IMG/VR virus record: IMGVR_UViG_2541047953_000002
DNA: 28,241 nt
Reading direction: 5' to 3' (one strand)
Source: a virus
Lineage: Duplodnaviria; Heunggongvirae; Uroviricota; Caudoviricetes
Shown here one piece after another: positions 3,307 to 20,404 of this stretch. Made by a program: the position numbers and the translations under genes. Below the pieces are notes generated by a model. It made no database searches. It was not told where the DNA came from and saw only the letters and a list, made by a program, of their open reading frames with translations. Each line of letters starts with the position of its first letter. Position 1 is the first letter of the stretch.

Positions 3307-3464
3307 CTACGGCAGTGCTGGCCATTCAATATCCTGTGCAGTTGACGTATCAACACGGTTCAGCAATACCCGATACTTTTTCCATGCTTCCAGCAACGAG
3401 ATTTCTTCCTCCGTTGCAATTTCCAGATCTGCAGCATCCTGAAGCGGCGCAATATGCTCACTGG
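3307..3464 (-). pseudogene. C-terminal remnant (~52 codons, no start) of a tail fibre assembly protein Tfa
   Basis: Manual translation gives ...[29 protein letters not shown], matching the Tfa C-terminus as recalled; the frame differs from the adjacent terminase gene and has no start codon. Confidence 0.6.
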
Positions 3465-4889
3465 CTACACAATGGTCGGGTCAATCCCGCCAGTATCCCA
3501 GCAGATACGGGATATCGACATTTCTGCACCATTCCGGCGGGTATAGGTTTTATTGATGGCCTCATCCACACGCAGCAGCGTCTGTTCATCGTCGTGGCGG
3601 CCCATAATAATCTGCCGATCAATCAGCCAGCTTTCCTCACCCGGCCCCCATCCCCATACGCGCATTTCGTAGCGGTCCAGTTGGGAGTCGATACCGGCGG
3701 TCAGGTAAGCCACACGGTCAGGAACGGGCGCTGAATAATGCTCTTTCCGCTCTGCCATCACTTCAGCATCCGGACGTTCACCGATTTTCGCTTCCCACGT
3801 CTCACCGAGCGTGGTGTTCACGAAGGTTTTACGTTTTCCCGTATCCCCTTTCGTCTTCATCCAGTCTTTGACAATCTGCACCCAGGTGGTGAACGGACTG
3901 TACGCCGTCCAGATGTGAAAGGTCACACTGTCAGGCGGTTCAATCTCTTCACCGGATGACGAAAACCAGAGAATGCCATCACGGGTCCAGATCCCGGTCT
4001 TTTCGCAGATATAACGGGCATCAGTAAAGTCCAGCTCCTGCTGACGGATGACGCAGGCGTTATGCTCACAGAGATAAAACACGCTGGAGGGGTCATCCGG
4101 CATCCATTTGAGGCCAAACGGCGTCTCTTTGTCGCCAAATTTAAGGTACTGCTCCTCCCCGCAGTGCGGGCAGGCAACATGAAAACGCATAAAATGCGGG
4201 GATTCACTGGCTGCACGCTCAATCTGGCAGGTGCCTCTCACTTTGGGCGTGGAGCCACGGATGGACTTTGGCCAGACCGAGCCTTCAATACGTTTGTCGC
4301 CAAGGAACGTCGGAGAGCCTTCCTGTTCAATATCCTCATCAAAGGCAGCAAGTTCATCATAACCCGCCACATCCACCGACTTTTCACGGTAGTTTTTTGC
4401 CGCTTTACCGCCCAGGCACCAGAAGCCACGACCATTGGTGAAACGCTTCATAGTGAGCGTGTTATCCCGGTGCTTTTTGCCATACCACGGAGCCAGCGCC
4501 AGCAGCGACGGAATATCGCGGATGGTCGGCTCAACGTGGGTTTTCATAAAGTTCTCGGCATCACCATCCGTCGGCAACCAGATAAGTGTGTTGCGCTGCT
4601 TATGCTCTATAAAGTAGGCATAAACACCCAGCAGCATTTTGGAATAACCGACACGGGCAGACTTCACCACATTCACCTCACGGATGTAGTCGCTGCCCAT
4701 CGCATTCATGATGGCCCGCTGAAAGGGCAGTGTTTCCCAGCGCCCTTCCTGGTATGCGGATTCTTTCGGGAGATAGTAATTAGCATCCGCCCATTCAACG
4801 GCGGTCTGTGGCTCCGGCCTGAACAGTGAGCGAAGCCCGGCGCGGACAAAATGCCGCAGCCTGTTAACCTGACTGTTCGATATATTCAC
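3465..4889 (-). CDS. Terminase large subunit, lambda gpA homologue, C-terminally truncated (474 of ~641 aa) at a deletion junction
   Basis: Protein matches lambda gpA from [14 protein letters not shown] through ...GGIDPTIV as recalled, then stops; lambda continues YERSKK. Confidence 0.9.
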
Positions 4890-6088: not shown

Positions 6089-6499
6089 ATGGATCAGGTA
6101 GTCATTTTTAAACAAATATTTGATAAAGTTCGAAACGATTTAAACTATCAATGGTTTTATTCTGAGCTAAAACGTCACAATGTCTCACATTACATTTACT
6201 ATTTAGCCACAGAGAATGTTCATATTGTATTAAAAAATGATAATACAGTGTTATTAAAGGGCCTAAAAAACATTGTGTCTGTCAAATTTTCAAAGGATAG
6301 GCATCTTATAGAAACGACCTCTAATAAGCTGAAATCCAGAGAGATCACATTTCAGGAATACAGAAGAAACCTTGCTAAAGCAGGAGTTTTTCGGTGGGTT
6401 ACAAATATCCACGAACAAAAAAGATATTACTATACCTTTGATAATTCATTACTATTTACTGAAAGCATCCAGAAAACTACACAGATCTTACCACGCTAA
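6089..6499 (+). CDS. ydfO: DUF1398-family prophage protein (136 aa)
   Basis: ORF track 6074..6499; ATG at 6089 has GGAAGG at ~8 nt and gives the K-12 length. Confidence 0.75.
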
Positions 6500-6599
6500 A
6501 CCATAACGTCCGGCTTCTCTCACTCCTGAGTCGGACTGCATTGGTTTAATAAAAACCATCAACAATTGTGATTTAGATATTCGGAACCATTCAAATATA

Positions 6600-6632
6600 A
6601 CAAAACCCCGTAAAAACGAGGTTTATGGATAA
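6600..6632 (-). terminator. Intrinsic terminator downstream of gnsB, possibly bidirectional
   Basis: Minus strand hairpin aacctcg/cggggtt (one mismatch) followed by a T-rich run. Confidence 0.4.
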
Positions 6633-6650
6633 ATTTTATTATTGAATACA

Positions 6651-6824
6651 TCAGATTAAATTAATCTTGACATCATAGCTTTCAAGACCCGTCATTTTTT
6701 CCCGTGCGGTAAACTGAATACTGGTAACTTCTTTCCCGGTCTTTTTCTTAAGTTCAATAATTTTTTTTGTTATATATTCAGAAATATCTGCTTCTGCTTT
6801 TGTTTTTAAGTTTTCAATATTCAT
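6651..6824 (-). CDS. gnsB: Gns-family small protein (57 aa; secG/fabA suppressor family)
   Basis: Manual translation MNIENLKTKAEADISEYITKKIIELKKKTGKEVTSIQFTAREKMTGLESYDVKINLI; Gns family by similarity recalled from memory; below ORF-track cutoff. Confidence 0.7.
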   Translation of the reverse strand: MNIENLKTKAEADISEYITKKIIELKKKTGKEVTSIQFTAREKMTGLESYDVKINLI

Positions 6825-6995
6825 CATTTCCTCTTTTAGTCTGTTATGACTTTCCAGTTACACAGTAAGTCGATTATATGGTGCAAACGTGTAAAAGATA
6901 AGATGAAACATCGCAATAATCAACATACGATAGTCTAAATTTTACACAAACAGACAAAGAGAATTTTCCTGAATTATCAATGCAATAGCATCAAA

Positions 6996-7151
6996 TCAAC
7001 TCAAGAGCCTTATTGCTGCTTCCAGAATTTCTTCTGAAGTAACATGTCGATCCGCGGCTACATAAATGACTTTATGATCTCCGGTCAGAGATGGAAACCC
7101 TGCGGCCATTACAGTAAGGTGTGTTTTTTCGCCATTTGGATATTCACGCAT
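6996..7151 (-). CDS. ynfN: Small prophage protein (51-aa form; a 76-aa form could start at 7226)
   Basis: ORF track 6996..7268 starts at TTG; the 51-aa start matches the K-12 length from memory; a terminator at 7271-7290 argues against the longest form. Confidence 0.5.
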   Translation of the reverse strand: MREYPNGEKTHLTVMAAGFPSLTGDHKVIYVAADRHVTSEEILEAAIRLLS

Positions 7152-7270
7152 GATGGTGTTAACTCCAGTCATCGCTGGCACTACCACTGCTGGTTCAGAG
7201 TTAAAAAAAACTATGATTTTTTTCATGATGTTACCGTAGTATGTGAGTATCCATCGAATAGACACCAAGC

Positions 7271-7290
7271 AAAAAAGCTCCCGAAGGAGC
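7271..7290 (-). terminator. Intrinsic terminator (hairpin gctcc/ggagc plus T6) in the cspI 3' region
   Basis: Seen directly; T-tract immediately follows the stem on the minus strand. Confidence 0.45.
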
Positions 7291-7497
7291 CTTCATTTTC
7301 ACTTTTTTAAATCCAACGACAGACGGCTGGCATTTAAGTATTGTGAAATATTATCAAATGTAATCATCATTGATTTACAAAAGATACATTTTGCCCCGAA
7401 AGGATTCATGTCAGAAACATCAAAAGATGATGTTCTATACTGGGAACCATGACAACACGGGCATCTAAAGTGAATATGGTTTGTAATATTGTCTACC

Positions 7498-7710
7498 TCA
7501 AAGCGCCACTACATGAACAGCGGCAGGACCTTTAGGTCCGTTCTCAATACCAAATTCAACTTCCTGATTCTCAGTTAATGTTTTGAAATCGTTGCTCTGA
7601 ATTGCTGAGAAATGGACAAACACATCTTTGCTGCCATCTTTCGGCGTGATGAAACCAAAACCTTTTTCAGGGTTAAACCATTTCACTAAACCAGTCATTT
7701 TGTTAGACAT
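7498..7710 (-). CDS. cspI: Cold-shock protein CspA family (70 aa)
   Basis: Protein [38 protein letters not shown]... with RNP1/RNP2 motifs. Confidence 0.95.
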
Positions 7711-8072
7711 AATTATTACCTTTTGAAGAAATTAGCCCTTGGGCAGAATGGTCCGAAAAAAAATATCAGAGAGAAAAACCAACAAGGAAATCTCAAGAGG
7801 TACAAATAATAAAATTATAACAATGACTGCTTCAGATAAATTTGTAACAAACCAGAACACCATTAACGCATGATTAACCACCCATAGCAAGGATTACTTT
7901 TGTAAAGAAAAACACAGCAATGAAAGAATAGCTTTATTTATTAATAAAACGTGTCATTCTGATTAAGACCTTTTATCTTACCCTTAAGATTTCAGGAATT
8001 TTGGCTCATGGAAGAGTCCTTTTTATTTAAATTTTACATTCCGCGATGTAAATGTTCCGATTTAATATTACC

Positions 8073-10100: not shown

Positions 10101-10381
10101 GAGATTGTGGTGCTTTTTGTGGGAGTCATCCACTTACGCACTTTGTTTTGCCATGCCAGCAGTTAGCTTCTGCTGTAAAACTATTCATGCAGCAAACCTG
10201 CACTTCACCACAATGGTTAGCATACTTTTCCTGATTAAGATTTTGCCAAATATGCTAGCCATTGTTTCATGTATTGGACCTCCTTACTTTTTATTAAAGA
10301 GATCCAATATTCACTACTCTGTCCGTATCTCTACTCAGGCATCAGCCTTCTTCGTTATCGTATACAGACGAGCGATGAATT

Positions 10382-10597
10382 TTAATCAGTAATGATGACA
10401 TTTGCTGCTGCAGGACCTTTAGCACCACTCTCTATAGAGAAGGTAACCTTTTGACCTTCAAATAAGGTTCGATAATTATCATTCTGAATCGCAGAAAAAT
10501 GCACAAACACATCTTTACTACCATCAACAGGAGAAATAAAGCCGAAACCTTTATCAGCGTTAAACCATTTTACTAAACCAGTCATTTTATTTGACAT
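10382..10597 (-). CDS. cspB: Cold-shock protein CspA family (71 aa)
   Basis: Protein [38 protein letters not shown]... Confidence 0.95.
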
Positions 10598-10897
10598 TCT
10601 ACATTCCTTAACTTGAGCCTTTCGGCATAAATGGTTTGCATAACAGAAACGACTTCGTACTTAATTGGAGAGACTCAAAGAAGGAATAAGTGAATAACAC
10701 CTGAAATGAGAACTGCTTTAGTAAACTACTTCGTATATCGTCTGTTCTTCAAACCGACGCAATCATTAACGCATAGTTGAACATATGAAGCAATGTTTAT
10801 TTTAGACATCCAGCCATCTTCAACCCCATCAAAAAACTATAGCTTTCTTCAGGAACGTGTGTATAGTGCGCCAAGTTATCAGTATTAAGGAATTTTT

Positions 10898-13063: not shown

Positions 13064-13148
13064 GTAAGCGTAAACTGACCGCCGTATGTAGCCATCAGAC
13101 GAGAATTGGTAACTTAGACGCCCATCTGATATAGACGGACATCTAAGT

Positions 13149-13574
13149 ATGGAATTACAGGACTGGCGAAAAGAACCTCGTAAAAACTATTCGAATGAAT
13201 TCAAACTTCGTATGGTGGAACTGGCATCACAACCTGGAGCTTGTGTTGCACAGATTGCACGTGAAAATGGCGTCAATGATAATGTTATTTTCAAATGGCT
13301 CAGGCTCTGGCAGAACGAAGGGCGTGTTTCGCGGCGTCTTCCGGTAACGACCTCTTCTGACACTGGCGTTGAATTATTACCTGTAGAAATAACGCCGGAT
13401 GAGCAGAAAGAACCTGTGGCGGCCATTGCGCCGTCTTTATCCACTTCCACTCAGACCAGAGTCAGTGCCAGTTCCTGCAAGGTGGAATTCCGTCACGGTA
13501 ACATGACGCTGGAAAATCCATCGCCAGAGCTGCTCACAGTGTTGATCCGTGAACTGACCGGGAGGGGAAGATGA
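13149..13574 (+). CDS. IS66-family accessory protein TnpA (HTH, 141 aa)
   Basis: ORF track; first gene of the IS66 triad; 4-nt overlap with tnpB. Confidence 0.85.
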   Translation: MELQDWRKEPRKNYSNEFKLRMVELASQPGACVAQIARENGVNDNVIFKWLRLWQNEGRVSRRLPVTTSSDTGVELLPVEITPDEQKEPVAAIAPSLSTSTQTRVSASSCKVEFRHGNMTLENPSPELLTVLIRELTGRGR

Positions 13575-13921
13575 TCTCACTCCCATCAGGTACCCGTATC
13601 TGGCTCGTTGCCGGCGTTACCGATATGCGTAAATCCTTCAACGGACTGGGAGAACAGGTACAACATGTGCTGAATGATAATCCCTTCTCCGGTCACCTGT
13701 TTATCTTCCGTGGCCGACGGGGTGACACCGTCAAAATTCTTTGGGCTGATGCTGATGGTCTGTGCCTGTTCACCAAACGCCTGGAGGAAGGCCAGTTTAT
13801 CTGGCCTGCGGTACGTGACGGCAAGGTATCCATTACCCGCTCGCAACTGGCAATGCTCCTCGATAAGCTGGACTGGCGCCAGCCAAAAACATCCAGCCGT
13901 AACTCACTGACAATGTTGTAA
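13571..13921 (+). CDS. IS66-family TnpB (116 aa)
   Basis: Characteristic N-terminus PSGTRIWLVAGVTDMRKSFNGL. Confidence 0.9.
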   Translation: MISLPSGTRIWLVAGVTDMRKSFNGLGEQVQHVLNDNPFSGHLFIFRGRRGDTVKILWADADGLCLFTKRLEEGQFIWPAVRDGKVSITRSQLAMLLDKLDWRQPKTSSRNSLTML

Positions 13922-13951
13922 AAAACTCCTGACCGCATTATAAAAACGGTC

Positions 13952-15565
13952 ATGAGTCAGAAATACCTCATTCGCATCGCAGAGCTGGAAAGGTTGCTCT
14001 CTGAGCAGGCTGAAGCCCTCCGTCAGAAAGACCAGCAACTGAGTCTGGTTGAAGAGACGGAAGCCTTCCTGCGCTCTGCACTGACACGTGCCGAAGAAAA
14101 GATCGAAGAAGATGAACGGGAAATAGAACATCTGCGGGCTCAGATAGAAAAACTGCGCCGGATGCTGTTCGGTACCCGTTCTGAAAAACTGCGTCGTGAA
14201 GTTGAACTGGCTGAGGCTCTGCTGAAACAACGTGAACAGGACAGCGATCGTTACAGTGGGCGGGAAGACGATCCTCAGGTTCCCCGCCAGTTGCGACAGT
14301 CGCGCCATCGTCGTCCGTTACCGGCACACCTTCCCCGTGAAATACACCGCCTGGAGCCAGAAGAAAGCTGTTGCCCGGAGTGTGGCGGTGAGCTGGATTA
14401 TCTGGGGGAAGTCAGCGCTGAACAGCTGGAACTGGTGAGCAGTGCCCTGAAAGTGATCCGCACAGAACGGGTAAAAAAAGCCTGTACAAAATGTGACTGT
14501 ATTGTTGAAGCACCGGCGCCGTCCCGCCCGATAGAGCGTGGTATCGCGGGCCCCGGATTACTTGCCCGCGTGTTAACGGGAAAATACTGCGAACATCTGC
14601 CACTGTATCGTCAGAGTGAAATCTTTGCCCGCCAGGGTGTCGAACTGAGCCGGGCCTTACTCTCCAACTGGGTTGACGCGTGCTGCCAGTTAATGACACC
14701 GGTGAATGATGCCCTGTACCGTTATGTAATGAACACCCGCAAGGTTCACACTGATGACACACCGGTAAAGGTACTGGCACCGGGTCAGAAAAAGGCGAAA
14801 ACAGGGCGTATCTGGACGTATGTCCGGGATGATCGCAATGTGGGTTCGTCATCTCCTCCAGCGGTCTGGTTCGCGTACTCGCCGAACCGGCAGGGGAAAC
14901 ACCCGGAGCAACACCTCCGCCCCTTCCGGGGTATCCTGCAGGCGGATGCGTTCACAGGTTACGACAGGTTGTTCAGTGCAGAACGTGAAGGTGGTGCACT
15001 GACAGAAGTTGCGTGCTGGGCCCATGCCCGGCGAAAAATCCACGATGTATACATCAGCAGCAAAAGTGCGACGGCAGAAGAAGCCCTGAAGCGAATCAGT
15101 GAACTGTACGCCATCGAGGATGAAATACGGGGATTACCGGAGTCAGAGCGTCTTGCCGTCAGGCAGCAGCGAAGCAAAGTGTTACTGACGTCGCTGCATG
15201 AATGGATGGTGGAGAAGAATGGTACGCTGTCGAAAAAATCCAGACTGGGCGAAGCGTTCAGCTATGTACTGAATCAGTGGGATGCCCTCTGTTATTACAG
15301 TGATGACGGTCTGGCGGAGGCGGATAATAATGCTGCGGAAAGAGCGCTTCGTGCAGTCTGTCTCGGAAAGAAAAACTTTATGTTCTTTGGCAGCGATCAC
15401 GGCGGCGAGCGTGGAGCACTGTTGTACGGGCTGATCGGCACCTGCCGTCTGAACGGTATCGATCCGGAAGCGTATCTGCGCCATATCCTGAGCGTACTGC
15501 CGGAATGGCCTTCCAACCGAGTTGACGAACTCCTGCCATGGAACGTAGTACTCACCAATAAATAA
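13952..15565 (+). CDS. IS66-family transposase TnpC (537 aa)
   Basis: N-terminal coiled coil, CxxC...CxxC zinc finger, and conserved CWAHARRK / NNAAERALR motifs. Confidence 0.9.
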   Translation: MSQKYLIRIAELERLLSEQAEALRQKDQQLSLVEETEAFLRSALTRAEEKIEEDEREIEHLRAQIEKLRRMLFGTRSEKLRREVELAEALLKQREQDSDRYSGREDDPQVPRQLRQSRHRRPLPAHLPREIHRLEPEESCCPECGGELDYLGEVSAEQLELVSSALKVIRTERVKKACTKCDCIVEAPAPSRPIERGIAGPGLLARVLTGKYCEHLPLYRQSEIFARQGVELSRALLSNWVDACCQLMTPVNDALYRYVMNTRKVHTDDTPVKVLAPGQKKAKTGRIWTYVRDDRNVGSSSPPAVWFAYSPNRQGKHPEQHLRPFRGILQADAFTGYDRLFSAEREGGALTEVACWAHARRKIHDVYISSKSATAEEALKRISELYAIEDEIRGLPESERLAVRQQRSKVLLTSLHEWMVEKNGTLSKKSRLGEAFSYVLNQWDALCYYSDDGLAEADNNAAERALRAVCLGKKNFMFFGSDHGGERGALLYGLIGTCRLNGIDPEAYLRHILSVLPEWPSNRVDELLPWNVVLTNK

Positions 15566-15595
15566 GCGTCAATACGGTGCTCCGTTGACGCTTAC

Positions 15596-15603
15596 CATTA
15601 GGC
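15596..15603. repeat. 8-bp target-site duplication CATTAGGC (right copy)
   Basis: Matches 13056-13063. Confidence 0.8.
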
Positions 15604-15887
15604 CACTGGCAGGATGTAACATGACGTAATAGCCAGTCGGACAATGCGCCAACGCCGCCAGCAGCACGAATCACCCGTTCGTTACTAAAAAACGGCAGCA
15701 ATGTTTTGTCTTCCGCCAGCGGCTGGCGAACGGCAGGAACGACTCCGGATGGCAGATTACGCATGCTTTTTGGTTCCGGTTCCACCAGCACTCGAGGATT
15801 ATGAAATATCTGTATGGATTCACGGCCCGGCTTAAGGACCACCAGCCCAAGCTCAGGCACCAGAACAGGTCTAAGTAATACCCGCAC
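15596..15887 (-). pseudogene. ydfU: ydfU N-terminal 97 codons (GTG start at 15887 with GGAGG Shine-Dalgarno)
   Basis: Same frame as the C-terminal fragment after removing IS plus one duplication (2540 bp); ORF track 15552..15926 reads into the IS. Confidence 0.75.
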
Positions 15888-15888
15888 G

Positions 15889-16167
15889 TTACCTCCAGAT
15901 CCGTTGCTGGAAAGTGCGGGACGCACGTGGTGGGCGTTCGGAATAAGGCAGCCTGACAGAGATTATCCAGTGCCGATAGTCGAGACTGAGAGCTTTCTTA
16001 ACCTCGAACCCGCGCCTGCGGTAAGAATGAATCAGCCATTCGGCCTGTTCTGCAGTGCATGGAGGGTGCTGGAACCATTCAGACTTGAATGCGTGAGAAT
16101 ACCGCCCGTGCGTGCAGGCAAGAACGGGCGAATTATCAGAATTGTAATATTTTGCGTTGCGTGCCAT
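15889..16167 (-). CDS. Hypothetical prophage protein (92 aa, Trp/Arg-rich), apparently translationally coupled to ydfU
   Basis: ORF track; ATG with GGAGA at ~6 nt; stop lies 1 nt before the ydfU GTG start. Confidence 0.5.
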   Translation of the reverse strand: MARNAKYYNSDNSPVLACTHGRYSHAFKSEWFQHPPCTAEQAEWLIHSYRRRGFEVKKALSLDYRHWIISVRLPYSERPPRASRTFQQRIWR

Positions 16168-16233
16168 CGGTTTTCTCCGGTGGCACGGTGTTACTCAGCG
16201 GGAGTTCAGCCCCGCGCAAGATTGTAGATGAGT

Positions 16234-16485
16234 TTATTCTCCTGAAAAAGCAGAAAAGCCAGCTTTTATTCCGATCTCTTTCAATGCCTGTAATGAAGTG
16301 ACAAACTCACCTTCGCGCAAGATAAATCCGTCCGTGACCCGAGCATCCACAAAATTAATTAACGCAGCCCCATTCTTTCGCAAACACATAATGCGGTAAT
16401 GACTAACAAGATTTCCATTTTCAACGCACACAGCATAGAGGCCATCTTCACAAAAAATTTTACGCAGTTCTTCGATGTTCATCAT
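16234..16485 (-). CDS. rem: Small prophage protein (83 aa)
   Basis: ORF track; length and position (between ydfU and hokD) match K-12 rem from memory. Confidence 0.55.
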   Translation of the reverse strand: MMNIEELRKIFCEDGLYAVCVENGNLVSHYRIMCLRKNGAALINFVDARVTDGFILREGEFVTSLQALKEIGIKAGFSAFSGE

Positions 16486-16596
16486 CAGAATCCTTCCGGA
16501 TAATTAGCTCTCCCCTTTAAGGGACCATCCCTCTTATCCCTGCGCGCTACTTAAGTATTTTTGATTCTATTCCGGCACCGTCCAGAACTTCAAACG

Positions 16597-16633
16597 CGTT
16601 GAAAATAAAAACAAAAACCCGCCGAAGCGGGTT
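16597..16633 (-). terminator. Intrinsic terminator ending the relB-relE-hokD operon
   Basis: Stem aacccgc/gcgggtt with loop cgaa, followed on the minus strand by TTTTTGTTTTTATTTT. Confidence 0.65.
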
Positions 16634-16701
16634 AAGTGCGGGTGCGTTGAGGATGCCTGCCACATCAGAGGTGGCGAGGGATTTCTCCCCCGCCGGGTCT
16701 C

Positions 16702-16857
16702 TTACTCCTCAGGTTCGTAAGCTGTGAAGACAGCGACCTCCGTCTGGCCGGTTCGGATTCGTACCTCGCAGAGGTCTTTCCTCGTTACCAGTGCCGTCAC
16801 TATGACGGTTAAACAGATGACGATCAGGGCGATTAACATCGCCTTTTGCTGCTTCAT
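16702..16857 (-). CDS. hokD: Hok-family membrane toxin (51 aa; HokD/RelF)
   Basis: Manual translation MKQQKAMLIALIVICLTVIVTALVTRKDLCEVRIRTGQTEVAVFTAYEPEE; below ORF-track cutoff. Confidence 0.85.
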   Translation of the reverse strand: MKQQKAMLIALIVICLTVIVTALVTRKDLCEVRIRTGQTEVAVFTAYEPEE

Positions 16858-16928
16858 AGCCTGCTTCTCCTGTCAACGCAAAGCAGAAGTGTCACCTTCG
16901 GTGCGAAACAGAGATGTCATGCTTTGGT

Positions 16929-17216
16929 TCAGAGAATGCGTTTGACCGCCTCGCTATATACTTCCGAGCGTTCTCTTTTCCCAACAGAAATCACGAAAAC
17001 GACAACTTTCTCGTCTATAACCTGGTATACAAGGCGATAGCCTGAAGACCGGAGCTTAATCTTGTAACAATCAGGCATACCACGGAGCTTGTTTGCTTCA
17101 ATCCGGGGTGACTCAAGTACTTCAACCAGCTTCTTTTTCAACTGTTCACGTACCGTCGAGCCCAGCTTTCGCCATTCCTTTAGTGCCCGCTCGTCAAAAT
17201 CCAGAAAATACGCCAT
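16929..17216 (-). CDS. relE: RelE mRNA-interferase toxin (95 aa)
   Basis: ORF track; classic RelE sequence; overlaps the relB stop. Confidence 0.95.
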   Translation of the reverse strand: MAYFLDFDERALKEWRKLGSTVREQLKKKLVEVLESPRIEANKLRGMPDCYKIKLRSSGYRLVYQVIDEKVVVFVISVGKRERSEVYSEAVKRIL

Positions 17217-17455
17217 CAGAGTTCATCCAGCGTCACACGTACTGGCTTAGGATTACGAAGCCGTTCTTTCACTATCTCCACAAGTTCAGCATCTTCATCA
17301 CTCAGGAGTGTCTGTTTGAACGGCAAGCGTTCATTGTCAGCGATATACTCGAGCATGAGACGAAGCGCTTCAGAAGGAGTTACACCCATTTTTTCAAGCG
17401 CGGCGTAAGAACGCGCTTTAAGTTCATCGTCAATACGCAGGTTAATGCTACCCAT
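17216..17455 (-). CDS. relB: RelB antitoxin (79 aa)
   Basis: ORF track; ribbon-helix-helix N-terminus. Confidence 0.95.
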   Translation of the reverse strand: MGSINLRIDDELKARSYAALEKMGVTPSEALRLMLEYIADNERLPFKQTLLSDEDAELVEIVKERLRNPKPVRVTLDEL

Positions 17456-17525
17456 GTCTTACACCTCTTGTAATTACAAATGTCATTACAAGTATCGCAC
17501 TACAACATGCTTAGGGCAAGTCACG
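17456..17525 (-). promoter_or_regulatory. relBE promoter and relO-type operator (12-bp perfect palindrome TTGTAATTACAA at 17468-17479 plus adjacent TGTCATTACAAG repeat)
   Basis: Palindromic hexad repeats seen directly upstream of the relB start; candidate -35 TTGCCC and -10 GATACT. Confidence 0.6.
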
Positions 17526-17785
17526 AAGGAAGTCAGAAAGTAGTCGTAAGAACGGTGATCACTGTCCGCTTTGTGCCAGGAGCAGCCATTGCTAAGTCCA
17601 TCCTGTATTGTGCAGGTCAGCTCGTTTTTAAAGAGTCCGGCCATCATCTTACTGGTACAGACACCATATACTTTGTGACGGTCAGGCTACATATGCACAA
17701 CTCAACTTATTCATCTATTTTTTGCTTTAGCATGTCAGTGTTGCTTTCTCGTCGGCGGGTGAGCGGTGACCTGACCTGTCGATAA
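17480..17785 (+). CDS. ydfV: Hypothetical protein (101 aa); start codon lies inside the relO operator
   Basis: ORF track; length and position match K-12 ydfV from memory; no clear Shine-Dalgarno; may not be expressed. Confidence 0.4.
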   Translation: MSLQVSHYNMLRASHEGSQKVVVRTVITVRFVPGAAIAKSILYCAGQLVFKESGHHLTGTDTIYFVTVRLHMHNSTYSSIFCFSMSVLLSRRRVSGDLTCR

Positions 17786-17937
17786 AGGAACGTAACACGT
17801 TTTATGCAACACCCGCATGCGGCAGAAAATTATTGCCGAACGTTTACCCCTGTCAACAAGCTTTACTTTCTGAGGCGCGCCAGCCCGCGAGGAAAACAAT
17901 CTGAACATCAAACAATTAATGACACAAGAAATACGAT

Positions 17938-17964
17938 TAAAGATTTTTTTGTGCATGCCGATAG
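17938..17964 (+). promoter_or_regulatory. Sigma-28 (FliA) promoter: TAAA-N15-GCCGATAG
   Basis: Near-consensus match to TAAA-N15-GCCGATAA about 25 nt upstream of the flxA start. Confidence 0.65.
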
Positions 17965-17987
17965 TGCTTTTTTAAAAGGAGAAATCT

Positions 17988-18320
17988 ATGTCTGTCACAA
18001 TTCAGGGAAATACCTCAACCGTTATTTCAAACAACTCCGCCCCGGAAGGAACATCAGAAATAGCCAAAATCACAAGACAAATTCAGGTGCTGACTGAAAA
18101 GCTTGGGAAAATCTCATCGGAAGAGGGGATGACGACACAGCAGAAAAAAGAAATGGCTGCATTGGTACAGAAGCAAATTGAAAGCCTCTGGGCTCAACTG
18201 GAGCAGTTGTTAAGGCAGCAGGCAGAGAAAAAGAATGAAGACGCGACAGTTCAGCCTGATAAAAAAGAAGAGAAAAAAGACGATACAAATACCGCTGGCA
18301 CCATTGATATTTACGTCTAA
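17988..18320 (+). CDS. flxA: FliA-regulated protein FlxA (110 aa)
   Basis: ORF track; AGGAG Shine-Dalgarno; sigma-28 promoter upstream. Confidence 0.9.
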   Translation: MSVTIQGNTSTVISNNSAPEGTSEIAKITRQIQVLTEKLGKISSEEGMTTQQKKEMAALVQKQIESLWAQLEQLLRQQAEKKNEDATVQPDKKEEKKDDTNTAGTIDIYV

Positions 18321-18335
18321 GTGACAGCCGTATTG

Positions 18336-18358
18336 TGGCCCTCATCGGGCCACTTTTC
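18336..18358 (+). terminator. Candidate flxA terminator (stem gtggccc/gggccac then TTTT)
   Basis: Seen directly 16 nt after the flxA stop. Confidence 0.45.
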
Positions 18359-18756
18359 GCCATCAGCCTTTTCTTTAAAGACATATTATCTTTGTATCAT
18401 TTCTGATAGTTAACATTACAAGATATAAGTAATGGACGCACTCCCAATTAGTCTATTTAAATCGCCACGAGTTTAACTGACAACCCATGATCAATTATGA
18501 ATTGCAACTATTTCTGTAGTCACTTTTGTGGGGACAGTCCACAAAACTGCCAACTTCCGCTTCTTGCTCTTAGCGGACATTAGCATAGGCTATTTACCAT
18601 AACGCCTCATTACGCGCACCGCCCAGACTGACTCAGCGCGTTTCTGGCATATCCCCGGTAAAACAAGTAACAAACCACCCGAAAATGAACACCAGAAACG
18701 CGACTTAAGAATCTACCCTATGAATGGATATGCACTCAACCGAATCGATCTTGGTT

Positions 18757-20070
18757 TCAATCTTTTTTATCGGGATCAGGCTTCTTTTTAGGTAACTTCG
18801 GGGGCTTAACTTGCTGATGACTTTGCGTTCGGCGCGTAAGCCAGGGATGGTCAGCTTTAGGTTTAACATAGTATTTTGAGCGTAAATCAATACGGGCATT
18901 ATCCACTCGTTCATGGACACTCTTTTCATCATCCAGTGGTATAGGCTCCGGGCCATCAACATACTTTTCCCAGCCCAGCGCTTTCCCGTCATACAGAACG
19001 TTAATTTCACCGTCAAAGTTCTCGCATACAGTAACAACCGAATGCCTAAGTCGATATCCCCGGCCCTCACTGCGTACCTGAAACGCACTGCTTTTGTACT
19101 GGAAAGTGAGATTTTTAGACAGAACGCGCTTCGCCTGTAGGCTGAAGATATAACCCAGTTCCTCTTCAGAATGGTGCACATCAAGATGAGCATTATCAGT
19201 AGTACGAGGCGACGTAGCGAACCGGTTGTTATAGGCTTCAATAAAGGTCGGCAACCATGCATTTGCTGTTTCAATATCACTGATATTCTGAAGCCGCATT
19301 TCTTTGACCAGCCTGTCCTGTAGTGTCTGATTGGCGCGCTCTACCCGCCCTTTTGCCTGCGGGCTGTTGGCATGGATTGGCTCGATGCCCAGTGTCTTTA
19401 TCGCACGAGTGAACTGGGTCAGCTCACCTTCCCGCTCTGGGTTATTTACCCTGAATATACTGTGTCTATCAGAGTAGAGAGCGAGCGGTACGCCATGATC
19501 ATTAAGGTAACCCCGGAGGGTTTCCATGTAAGCCCGGGTTGTTTCAGCAGGCACAAAACGCAACGCCATCAACGCACTGGTGGCATCATCAATGAAAACG
19601 ATCAGTGTACATCTGGGGCCTCGATTTTCAAACCAGTCATGAGGTGAGCCATCAATCTGGATCAGTTCACCGTAAGATGGTCGTCGCATGCGGCGTTGAT
19701 ATATACGGGCAATTTTACGACGGCGTTCACGCCATAACCCCTCTTCTATCATCCACTTTCTGAGAGTTTCAACGGATAAAGATAAACCGTGTATCTCGCG
19801 CAATTTTTCGCACGCAAACGTAGGTCCAAAATCAGCGTAACGGCCTTTGAGGAGTGAAATTACTGTTGCTCTGAATTCAGTAGAAAAGGAATTATTAGGA
19901 CGCTTTCCACGTCGGTGGGAAACCAGACCAGAAGGCCCTTCATTTCTATACCGTTGCACCAGACGTTTAACCTGCCGAATAGAAATGCCAATGCGTGCCG
20001 CAGCTTGTTCCTGAATAATCTGAAGTCGGTGGAGTTCCTTATGACTCATCGTAACAGTCTCTTTGATCAT
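18757..20070 (-). CDS. DDE-type transposase/integrase (rve-like catalytic core, 437 aa); family and element ends unresolved
   Basis: N-terminal HTH, candidate catalytic D-D-E (DGSPHDWF ... DRHSIF ... RVERAN) and a Lys/Pro-rich tail; a 7-bp hairpin overlaps the ribosome-binding site. Confidence 0.8.
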   Translation of the reverse strand: MIKETVTMSHKELHRLQIIQEQAAARIGISIRQVKRLVQRYRNEGPSGLVSHRRGKRPNNSFSTEFRATVISLLKGRYADFGPTFACEKLREIHGLSLSVETLRKWMIEEGLWRERRRKIARIYQRRMRRPSYGELIQIDGSPHDWFENRGPRCTLIVFIDDATSALMALRFVPAETTRAYMETLRGYLNDHGVPLALYSDRHSIFRVNNPEREGELTQFTRAIKTLGIEPIHANSPQAKGRVERANQTLQDRLVKEMRLQNISDIETANAWLPTFIEAYNNRFATSPRTTDNAHLDVHHSEEELGYIFSLQAKRVLSKNLTFQYKSSAFQVRSEGRGYRLRHSVVTVCENFDGEINVLYDGKALGWEKYVDGPEPIPLDDEKSVHERVDNARIDLRSKYYVKPKADHPWLTRRTQSHQQVKPPKLPKKKPDPDKKD

Positions 20071-20404
20071 GAAAAATCCCCCAGAGAATTGTCTGGGGAC
20101 ATTTTAGAATGGTTCAAAGGGGACATTACAGCTTGGTGTTAACAATAGCCTGCTTCTCCGTGCCTTTCGGCACGTAAGAGGCTAACCTACATGTGTCTAG
20201 CATGAAATTGGCCTCAGATTAATGTTAAGCGTCTTGCAGGACGCGTAATGTTAACTGGGGCTTTTCTCTATCTGCCGTTGGTGTCCATGCCCGAGGCAGA
20301 TAGCCTCAAGCACCCGCAGTCATTCTACTTAACTAAGATTTCCCCGCAAACCGTTTTTGTCCAGCACAGTAAATATCCAACTAAACCAATGGAGTTCGCT
20401 GTAT

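Follow-up and report, generated by a model that had tools for sequence, protein, structure and literature searches.

A relB-relE-hokD operon in a prophage-like sequence and its probable origin by insertion of an ISEsa1-like transposon at a hok start

The closest described relative of the locus analysed here is the relBEF operon in the Qin prophage of Escherichia coli K-12, in which the type II toxin-antitoxin (TA) genes relB and relE are followed by the Hok-family toxin gene hokD (relF). Our locus occupies positions 16,597 to 17,525 of the virus record IMGVR_UViG_2541047953_000002 (Caudoviricetes), a stretch of 28,241 nucleotides that we call the window. The operon, its operator relO, the relBE-ydfV overlap and the integration of relBE that truncated hokD have all been published previously: the operon in 1985-86 and 1998, relO and conditional cooperativity in 2008-2012, the integration in 2016 and 2019, and the overlap, as a divergent 'excludon', in 2025 (PMC12288877). 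We propose one explanation for the whole: the locus is a relBEF operon, this operon originated by transposition, and ydfV is a chance open reading frame (ORF). We put the probability of this explanation at about 0.85.

In K-12, northern probes for relB, relE and relF detect one common full-length transcript. The 5' end of the relBEF RNA maps to PrelBEF, deletion of that promoter abolishes transcript and induction, relE has no ribosome-binding site (RBS) of its own and its coupling to relB was proven by experiment, and the relF segment is the most abundant mRNA piece once the toxin has cleaved (PMC3598666). The relO hexads were also defined by experiment; relO covers -10 to +17 of the relBE promoter, and binding of RelB2-RelE at the four hexads regulates the operon (PMC2812701). 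As to origin, relBE is reported to come from plasmids, its integration having shortened an ancestral 70-codon hokD to 51 codons (PMC6379469). A hok locus of the type concerned, hokW-sokW of the O157 prophage Sp5, encodes a 51-aa Hok and is an experimentally working type I system (PMC8621323); it is likened to the hokD locus by description, not by direct sequence comparison. A direct comparison is provided by the hok copy of an O157:H7 prophage, whose toxin is 98% identical to HokD and which shares the nin-region slot, the 3' untranslated region (UTR) and the terminator. Such relBE-free prophage loci keep a leader of ~170 nt (sok and a 70-codon mok) at hok, whereas in the window a 3.3-kb transposon lies between the two.

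Three further systems bear comparison. In operons of the mazEF-mazG type, the mobile unit consists of promoter, operator and TA genes without a terminator, so the downstream gene is co-transcribed (PMC5120126). The relBE-hokD operon differs in that its downstream gene is a toxin of another TA type and in that the arrangement recurs through an insertion site. Tn3-family transposons carry a type II TA pair near one end, where it presumably stabilises the element or replicon; their transposase family and mechanism differ from those of the ISEsa1-like element, and we know of no fusion to a second toxin gene at their target. Finally, the IS1202 family of insertion sequences (IS) has TGT ends, imperfect repeats of ~24-29 bp, target duplications of 3-6, 15-17 or 24-29 bp depending on the subgroup, and occasional passenger genes; one subgroup strictly targets dif sites. 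The element in the window shares with this family (ISEsa1; the dif-targeting ISAjo2/ISAba32) the transposase family, TGT ends, imperfect repeats of ~25 bp, a long duplication (as in the 15-17-bp subgroup), the carriage of passengers and a strong target preference as found in one subgroup. It is distinguished by relBE as constant right-end cargo together with exchangeable middle cargo, and by its preference for the hok ribosome-binding region in place of the dif/pdif sites preferred by the ISAjo2/ISAba32 group.

Positions 16400-17900 are 100% identical to E. coli K-12 MG1655, where rem, hokD, relE, relB, ydfV and flxA are annotated. The window as a whole is not K-12: the match is confined to 15595-18941 around the operon, a segment that is identical and includes the three genes, promoter, relO, terminator and ydfV. 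Beyond its end at 18941 the two differ, since the window strain keeps a complete transposon and a displaced hok leader (18942-20315) and K-12 has ydfX-dicC sequence in their place. In K-12-type genomes the match ends at 18941, and what is annotated there as ydfW is thus the final 49 codons of the ISEsa1-like transposase. The K-12 pseudogene ydfX sits at the deletion or replacement junction, where K-12 diverges from the window.

The relB-relE-hokD operon

The operon comprises the following features.
17216-17455, minus strand: relB, 79 aa, antitoxin and repressor; Shine-Dalgarno (SD) sequence GAGGT 7 nt 5' of the start
16929-17216, minus strand: relE, 95-aa toxin; its start overlaps the relB stop in TGATG
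16702-16857, minus strand: hokD (relF), 51-aa Hok-family membrane toxin; SD AGGAG 9 nt 5' of the start
16606-16701, minus strand: native hok 3' UTR, with two hairpins and an intrinsic terminator
stem 16633-16616 and T-run 16615-16606, minus strand: intrinsic terminator, from terminator prediction
17468-17491, minus strand: relO operator, TTGTAATGACAT + TTGTAATTACAA on the relB strand, with four RelB hexads
17491-17519, minus strand: relBE promoter, assigned by eye; -35 TTGCCC at 17519-17514, 17-nt spacer, -10 GATACT at 17496-17491

A sequence-only reading of this DNA had described a three-gene relB-relE-hokD operon with relO, expressed from one promoter and ending at a strong intrinsic terminator. 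The ORFs, their Pfam families and the operator hexads all bear this description out; the single promoter agrees with the PrelBEF-dependent transcript of K-12 (PMC3598666), and one intrinsic terminator is predicted at the operon end, with a GC-rich hairpin of 7 bp and a TTCG loop before the T-run. RelB matches Pfam PF04221 over its full length (1e-32) and the NCBIfam equivalog NF008412 (133 bits, cut-off 96). RelE matches Pfam ParE_toxin (2e-13) and TIGR02385 RelE_StbE (54.7 bits, cut-off 27.9), and HokD matches Pfam HOK_GEF (1e-23) and PHROG 251. RelB and RelE have the same sequences as WP_000323025.1 and WP_000534858.1, which have been characterised in K-12; ribosome-dependent cleavage of mRNA by RelE and its neutralisation by RelB would be their predicted activities. 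Comparison with the anti-SD sequence found no SD for relE; this and the TGATG overlap with relB indicate that relE translation is coupled to that of relB. A spacer of 71 nt separates relE from hokD.

The string TTGTAATTACAA-ATG-TCATTACAAG is located at 17468-17492. Hexads fitting the consensus [A/T]TGT[A/C]A start at 17468, 17474, 17480 and 17486 and form two abutting 12-bp half-sites; the 24-bp operator has a single copy in the window and none in 100 shuffles. The ydfV start codon is indeed buried in the operator, as had been proposed, its ATG (17480-17482) being the first three bases of the plus-strand hexad ATGTCA. The promoter places the relBE transcription start at about 17484, in agreement with the -10 to +17 extent of relO (PMC2812701); it was missing from our consensus promoter scan because it falls below the scan threshold. 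The mechanism is established, directly or by published experiment: RelB dimers aided by RelE bind the four hexads over the -10 element and the start and so repress the single promoter; relE is made by coupling to relB, and the RNA runs on through hokD to the terminator that belongs to hok.

A transposon at the hok start

We found hokD-like DNA in 4,718 of 5,426 complete E. coli genomes, mostly without relBE. In the copies without relBE, similarity to the window starts exactly at 16871, 14 nt 5' of the hokD ATG. The nin-region slot of hokD is the same in three lambdoid prophages without relBE. At relBE-free hokD loci the Rfam family RF01794 (sok/hok leader) lies directly 5' of the gene (104-120 bits, gathering score 59; 67-120 bits among intact hok relatives), and a 70-codon mok is a 19-codon in-frame extension of hok. 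Beside hokD in the window, no RF01794 match was found in 16000-18500 at E values up to 10. The mok-like leader frame that the sequence-only reading had envisaged upstream of hokD is absent, a TGA closing the hok frame 5 codons 5' of the ATG, and we found no upstream frame able to couple into hokD translation. A 55-aa ORF starting with TTG (16709-16876) was rejected as mok: real mok is in frame with hok, and this other frame is closed and startless in intact loci.

A whole-window Rfam pass located the missing leader on the far side of a transposon, in the same orientation as hokD.
20145-20315, minus strand: displaced hok leader (Rfam sok/hok leader, RF01794; 104 bits, gathering score 59, model positions 1-157)
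20159-20145, minus strand: left target-duplication copy, GGAGAAGCAGGCTAT, in the displaced leader
20144-16871, minus strand: ISEsa1-like (IS1202/ISNCY family) transposon, 3,274 bp, carrying transposase, flxA and relBE
20119-20144, minus strand: left terminal inverted repeat (IRL), TGTTAACACCAAGCTGTAATGTCCCC
18757-20070, minus strand: transposase, 437 aa, ISNCY / IS1202-like ISEsa1 family
17988-18320, plus strand: flxA, the middle cargo gene (ORF and RefSeq annotation)
16871-16896, minus strand: right terminal inverted repeat (IRR), GGTGACACTTCTGCTTTGCGTTGACA, where the relBE module invariably ends in all contexts examined
16856-16870, minus strand: right target-duplication copy, GGAGAAGCAGGCTAT, which runs from the hokD SD through the 'AT' of the start codon

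The covariance-model match (20144-20315) holds the mok start (ATG at 20203), the hok SD and the left duplication copy. It breaks off after GGAGAAGCAGGCTAT into TGTTAACACCAAGCTGTAATGTCCCC, which is followed by the ORF for the 437-aa transposase. The mok frame therein enters the transposon and stops at 20126, the resulting ORF (20126-20203) being MLDTCRLASYVPKGTEKQAIVNTKL; the intact counterpart is the 70-aa mok of the relBE-free prophage L005. This prophage represents the empty site and the window the filled site, with the 15-bp GGAGAAGCAGGCTAT identical at both transposon ends. The ends begin with 5'-TGT (TGTTAACACC... and TGTCAACGCA...). IRL and the reverse complement of the relE-proximal end are identical at 19 of 26 positions (16 of the first 22), a match equalled by 9 of 200,000 random 26-mers (p ~5e-5). 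An identical IRL forms the outer end in plasmid L178, and plasmid copies of the IS begin to match at exactly the same base. The transposase scores 456 bits against NCBIfam NF033594 (cut-off 250), contains Pfam HTH and rve_3 domains and is named in RefSeq as 'IS1202-like element ISEsa1 family' transposase. Of the 5,426 E. coli genomes, ~760 have the structure complete to at least 80%. The hok promoter of the displaced leader faces the transposase gene (ATG at 20070), so hok/Sok might affect transposase expression.

The end repeats, the single DDE transposase of 400-500 aa and the 15-bp duplication are typical of the IS1202 family. The family's length of 1.3-2.0 kb with a transposase alone does not fit, the element measuring 3,274 bp here and 2.3-6.1 kb elsewhere. 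Since it always comes with relBE and usually with further cargo, we regard it as a cargo-carrying transposon derived from the IS1202 family and not as a plain IS. We also considered a right end at the length given by ISfinder (~18552), where the best inverted-repeat partner matches at 11 of 22 positions as against 16 of 22 at the relE-proximal end; the latter value is close to the 15 of 22 given by ISfinder for ISEsa1.

Comparative sequence data thus show the operon to be a by-product of transposition, with relBE as constant cargo at the right end of the element. The element inserted into a prophage hok/sok locus like that of O157 Sp5 (hokW-sokW), duplicating the 15 bp from the SD to 'AT'. One copy remained beside sok and mok in the leader, which is now 3.3 kb upstream, and the other rebuilt an intact RBS and ATG for hokD, 14 nt past the transposon end. 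As there is no terminator between relE and the transposon end, relBE transcription would read into hokD. The type I toxin stands behind a type II pair because the insertion parted it from its own leader. We infer that hokD is thereby freed from Sok, mok and fold-back control, its transcription being set by RelB/RelE only, and Sok from the displaced leader would have no pairing target on the relBEF mRNA. The fold-back lock presumably cannot form as in R1, its 5' pairing partner being absent from the relBEF mRNA. The hokD 3' UTR folds better than its shuffles (z = -2.8) and is ~99% conserved in relBE-free hokD loci. The relE-hokD spacer shows no excess folding over shuffles (z = 0.65), and we rejected a structure masking the hokD SD on this ground. 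An Rfam isrK match in the hokD 3' UTR (25 bits, gathering score 50) was dismissed along with other sub-threshold matches, rsmX and P9; it recurs in relBE-free loci, which points to generic hairpin-plus-terminator matches. Codon 47 of hokD (16711-16721, minus strand) is a Tyr codon, TAC, within GCTTACGAA, which is nearly invariant across aligned Hok lineages and similar to the motif that TadA edits in the anticodon loop of tRNA-Arg; according to a recent preprint, hokD mRNA is recoded like hokB.

We then examined 68 relB loci, taken from one genome per species. The near-identical relBE module always ends at the same base, in ...TTTGCGTTGACA (window position 16871), although what adjoins it on the right takes more than 20 different forms. 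At least seven of these forms place another Hok-family gene directly after the transposon end, its ATG following within 1-13 nt. Of about 23 distinct contexts, 9 have the end within 15 nt of a hok start. The Hok lineages include a HokD-like one (70% identity), three plasmid types, a HokE-like and a PndA-like one. Six linked Hok ORFs were tested against Pfam HOK_GEF and all six passed; the PndA-like gene in L145 was assigned by eye. No hok leader was found at any of nine relBE-linked hok loci; relBE-free counterparts of the linked lineages carry one, at 67-111 bits. In each lineage the retained part of hok starts at the first base of the ribosome-binding region. IncHI2A plasmids provide a second pair of sites: L079 has the empty site, ...tgcaa GGAGAAGAAGGCCAT gaaaatg, and L178 has the filled site in the order GGAGAAGAAGGCCAT, IRL, transposase, (ISEsa2), cytochrome b, cation diffusion facilitator (CDF) transporter, relB, relE, IRR, GGAGAAGAAGGCCAT. 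Several prophage contigs contain elements of 2.3-4.7 kb flanked by identical 15-bp duplications. In L044 the insertion lies outside hok, with a duplication matching at 13 of 15 positions. In L016 the same end meets the start codon of hok from the other side: it adjoins a complete, oppositely oriented hok leader and abuts the reverse complement of the same 15-bp target. We therefore consider it likely that an ISEsa1-like transposon with relBE prefers hok ribosome-binding regions and recurrently converts hok/sok loci into relB-relE-hok operons. The textbook relBEF would be one instance; the same end adjoins at least seven other lineages of Hok, which several genera carry on plasmids, in prophages or in the chromosome.

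In two viral contigs (L145 and L160), the element lies between a hokD target and a PndA-like hok target in two reciprocal combinations, which suggests recombination between copies inserted in different hok genes. Two other viral contigs (L124 and L167) have a 99-bp deletion that starts exactly at the right end (window 16772-16870) and removes the hokD RBS and first 28 codons; this may reflect either adjacent deletion by the element or selection against hokD. The short elements in L152, L028 and L044, considered as a cargo-free basic form, proved to be transposase-deletion derivatives.

The middle cargo is bounded by a pair of palindromes, GTCCGCT-N10-AGCGGA(C/A).
18555-18578, minus strand: palindromic site 1, GTCCGCT-N10-AGCGGAA, the left boundary of the exchangeable middle cargo
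17564-17587, minus strand: palindromic site 2, GGCTGCT-CCTGGCACAA-AGCGGAC, a hybrid form at the junction of the flxA and relBE modules inside ydfV

Between them lies flxA here, and cytochrome b with the CDF transporter or other genes elsewhere. Plasmid IS copies cease to match at site 1, with other cargo beyond it, and the flxA module adjoins unrelated genes in relBE-free prophages. Site 2 looks like a hybrid of two variants, as if cargo had been swapped by site-specific recombination. In L177, a nickel-resistance operon follows site 1. In IncHI2A plasmids ISEsa2 (IS110 family; L178 positions 6352-7590) stands directly after site 1, and in another plasmid match (H100) it is annotated ~20 nt inside the left edge of the relBE module, near site 2. 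ISEsa2 may target these palindromes. A sigma-54 promoter at the left palindrome was rejected for its wrong spacing.

The right boundary had also been considered in other ways. An integron attC core is contradicted by the sequence (GTTRRRY does not fit GTTGACA), a XerCD/dif-like site by a lack of similarity, and homologous exchange within a conserved SD by differences between lineages in the junction-proximal sequences. Subterminal hairpins of the IS200/IS605 type were likewise dropped. All boundary explanations that predate the transposon were abandoned after IRL, the transposase and the 15-bp duplications had emerged.

The ydfV frame

One feature of the opposite strand crosses the operator and the module junction.
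17480-17785, plus strand: 'ydfV' ORF, 101 codons; the relBE module supplies codons 1-~33 and the flxA module the remainder

As a protein gene, ydfV is almost certainly not real but a chance ORF on the opposite strand. No anti-SD match of at least 4 nt was found 5' of its ATG, and relB, hokD, flxA and rem each have one; no plus-strand sigma-70-like pair (at least 7/12) was found within 100 nt upstream. Its length is unremarkable among the 47 ORFs of at least 101 codons in the six frames of the window. No family was found for it in Pfam, NCBIfam or PHROGs. A single-sequence AlphaFold2 run gave a mean pLDDT of 52 with 0 residues at or above 70, which is weak evidence on such input. Among 5.8 billion proteins there are 31 matches, from E. 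coli/Shigella and a few relatives and 55-154 aa long. In alignments, residues 1-~36 accompany relBE into other genera and plasmids and then run into unrelated sequence, and residues ~40-101 are found in other E. coli behind different N-termini. The edge of the relBE module lies at ~17583 on plasmids and the flxA-side module extends to 17572 in relBE-free prophages, where the frame is called from GTG (70 aa) or from farther upstream (108 aa); the PGAP annotation labels the plasmid stub a truncated pseudogene.

The start codon itself has a simple explanation. We compared 50 distinct upstream regions of relB: most have ATG or TTG as the operator triplet and a few have ACG or another, and the ORF opened by the triplet may be anything between 1 and 101 codons long, no length being favoured. 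The ydfV ATG thus exists because the hexad consensus demands ATG or TTG, and the frame has 101 codons because the flxA module happens to adjoin the relBE module. Full-length ydfV is intact in ~1,158 E. coli genomes whose DNA is at least 99% identical, so conservation is uninformative and a dN/dS-type test impossible. In the literature, ydfV is still counted among uncharacterised genes. The phenotype of ydfV::Tn10, a suppressor of RNase E loss, was attributed to reduced relB expression (PMC5436854), and PMC12288877 summarises it as complemented by relB and not by ydfV. YdfV is undetected in one proteome table that lists the protein (PMC8910356).

The sequence-only reading had offered two views of ydfV: that RelB/RelE binding would occlude its start, or that the ORF is an annotation artefact. 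The second agrees with the missing SD, promoter and family and with the variable length. The first fails, since a DNA-bound repressor cannot hide a codon in mRNA and could only block or roadblock transcription. With the ATG in relO, any mRNA carrying it must start inside relB, and no promoter-like site was found there on the plus strand upstream of the ATG.

Competing explanations, neighbouring features and implications

Of the alternatives, the one that survives best concerns RNA and is compatible with the proposed explanation, under which plus-strand transcription across ydfV may still act on relBE as antisense or interference, as published. It holds that the ydfV region acts as RNA: plus-strand transcription over relO into relB would form an excludon with relBE, each transcript lowering the other through interference or RNase III cleavage. 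We think this possible, at odds somewhat below even. Inverse expression of ydfV and relBE under four antibiotics is described for E. coli in PMC12288877, and the sequence requires the relBE promoter and the first 40 nt of a plus-strand transcript to overlap. Against this, we found no plus-strand promoter-like site upstream of relO, and the accessible text of PMC12288877 gives no start for the plus-strand RNA. RelB-dependent repression alone could yield inverse RNA levels, and the layout exists only where the flxA module adjoins relBE and so is not a conserved feature of relBE loci. A sigma-70 promoter candidate (TTGACA, 16 nt, AATAAT; 11/12) lies on the minus strand at 17829-17856, between flxA and the end of ydfV, and faces through ydfV to relBE; the RNA predicted from it is not unusually structured (z = 0.64). 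It could produce a long relBE-sense RNA antisense to ydfV, which would also count against the excludon reading.

A second alternative sees the relBE-hok junction as a hybrid module shaped by selection and not as a mere scar of insertion. With hok free of Sok and under the RelB/RelE promoter, it would serve as a two-toxin response: loss of RelB (phage shut-off, stress) would free RelE and turn on hok transcription. In its favour, the duplication rebuilds an intact hok SD and ATG in every direct-orientation insertion, at least seven Hok lineages occur in the arrangement with intact ORFs, the relF piece is the most abundant one after toxin-induced cleavage (PMC3598666), and HokD is toxic when expressed (bioRxiv 2025.08.07.668861). 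We nevertheless regard it as unlikely. The same transposon end also adjoins many non-hok sequences, the insertion in L016 is reversed with no hok behind the end, and in some loci the linked hok has degenerated or been deleted (L017, L018, L124/L167). We found no report of HokD translation from the relBEF mRNA, and the target preference of a transposase explains the recurrence without selection.

It is more improbable still that ydfV is a real protein gene, divergent from relBE and kept off by RelB/RelE at relO. The ~1,158 near-identical genomes in which it is intact and annotated 'protein YdfV', the detection of ydfV-strand RNA that varies with conditions, and a sequence compatible with a leaderless mRNA beginning at the ATG are what speak for it. 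They are opposed by the uninformative conservation, the absence of SD, promoter-like site, family and confident fold, the position across a module junction whose halves occur separately with other partners, the 1-101-codon range across relB loci, the proteome table and the crediting of the Tn10 phenotype to relB. The last alternative, that relBE reached hok by illegitimate or short-homology recombination, deserves hardly any credence: the sharp right boundary taken alone, its 1-3 nt of microhomology and the lack of a transposase or left repeat in K-12 would suit it, but much speaks for transposition. The terminal repeats match, the transposase is intact and typical of its family, two different hok loci each show an exact 15-bp duplication and have a corresponding empty site, and one insertion is inverted at the same 15 bp. 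The duplications at both ends refute the recombination reading for the window and L178.

Several points nonetheless weigh against the explanation that we prefer. K-12 itself has only a remnant of the element, the leader being gone together with the left end and most of the transposase. In ISfinder, ISEsa1 has a length of 1,609 bp and no detected duplication, which differs from a 3.3-kb unit, and transposition of the long unit is our reading of sequence signatures. Concerning ydfV, RefSeq retains it as a protein, the fold prediction counts for little, and RNA sequencing (RNA-seq) has detected a plus-strand transcript inverse to relBE (PMC8910356 and PMC12288877), so the locus is not silent. Concerning hokD, the literature that we searched holds no report of its translation from relBEF mRNA. 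In the R1 paradigm, translation of hok requires mok, and mok is absent at hokD.

Elsewhere in the window, a 2.5-kb ISEc23 (13064-15594; IS66 family, with tnpA, tnpB and transposase), absent from K-12, is inserted with the antiterminator region on one side and the DUF968 gene on the other. Two cspA-type thermoregulator 5' UTRs (7471-7856 and 10366-10758, minus strand) and an IS009 RNA element (3341-3535, minus strand) score above their Rfam gathering scores; the thermoregulator at 10366-10758 overlaps cspB by K-12 coordinates. The cspA-type 5' UTRs and the IS009 element are ordinary for this prophage.

In the literature that we covered, which did not include Ramisetty & Santhosh 2016, we found no description of the transposon identity, the 15-bp duplication or the preference for hok starts, and the transposon origin and hok targeting may be previously undescribed. 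In practice, a mutation assigned to ydfV changes the relBE promoter/operator or the flank upstream of it, and ydfV is unsuitable for treatment as a protein gene. If our explanation is true, the 15-bp duplication is the target duplication that was reported as undetectable for ISEsa1, and ydfW and ydfX are explained as gene fragments. A transposon homing on hok starts would explain this odd operon, a hokD without an antitoxin RNA and the recurrence of relBE-hok on IncHI2-type resistance plasmids. It would also make it possible to test how an IS family that has received little study selects its targets.

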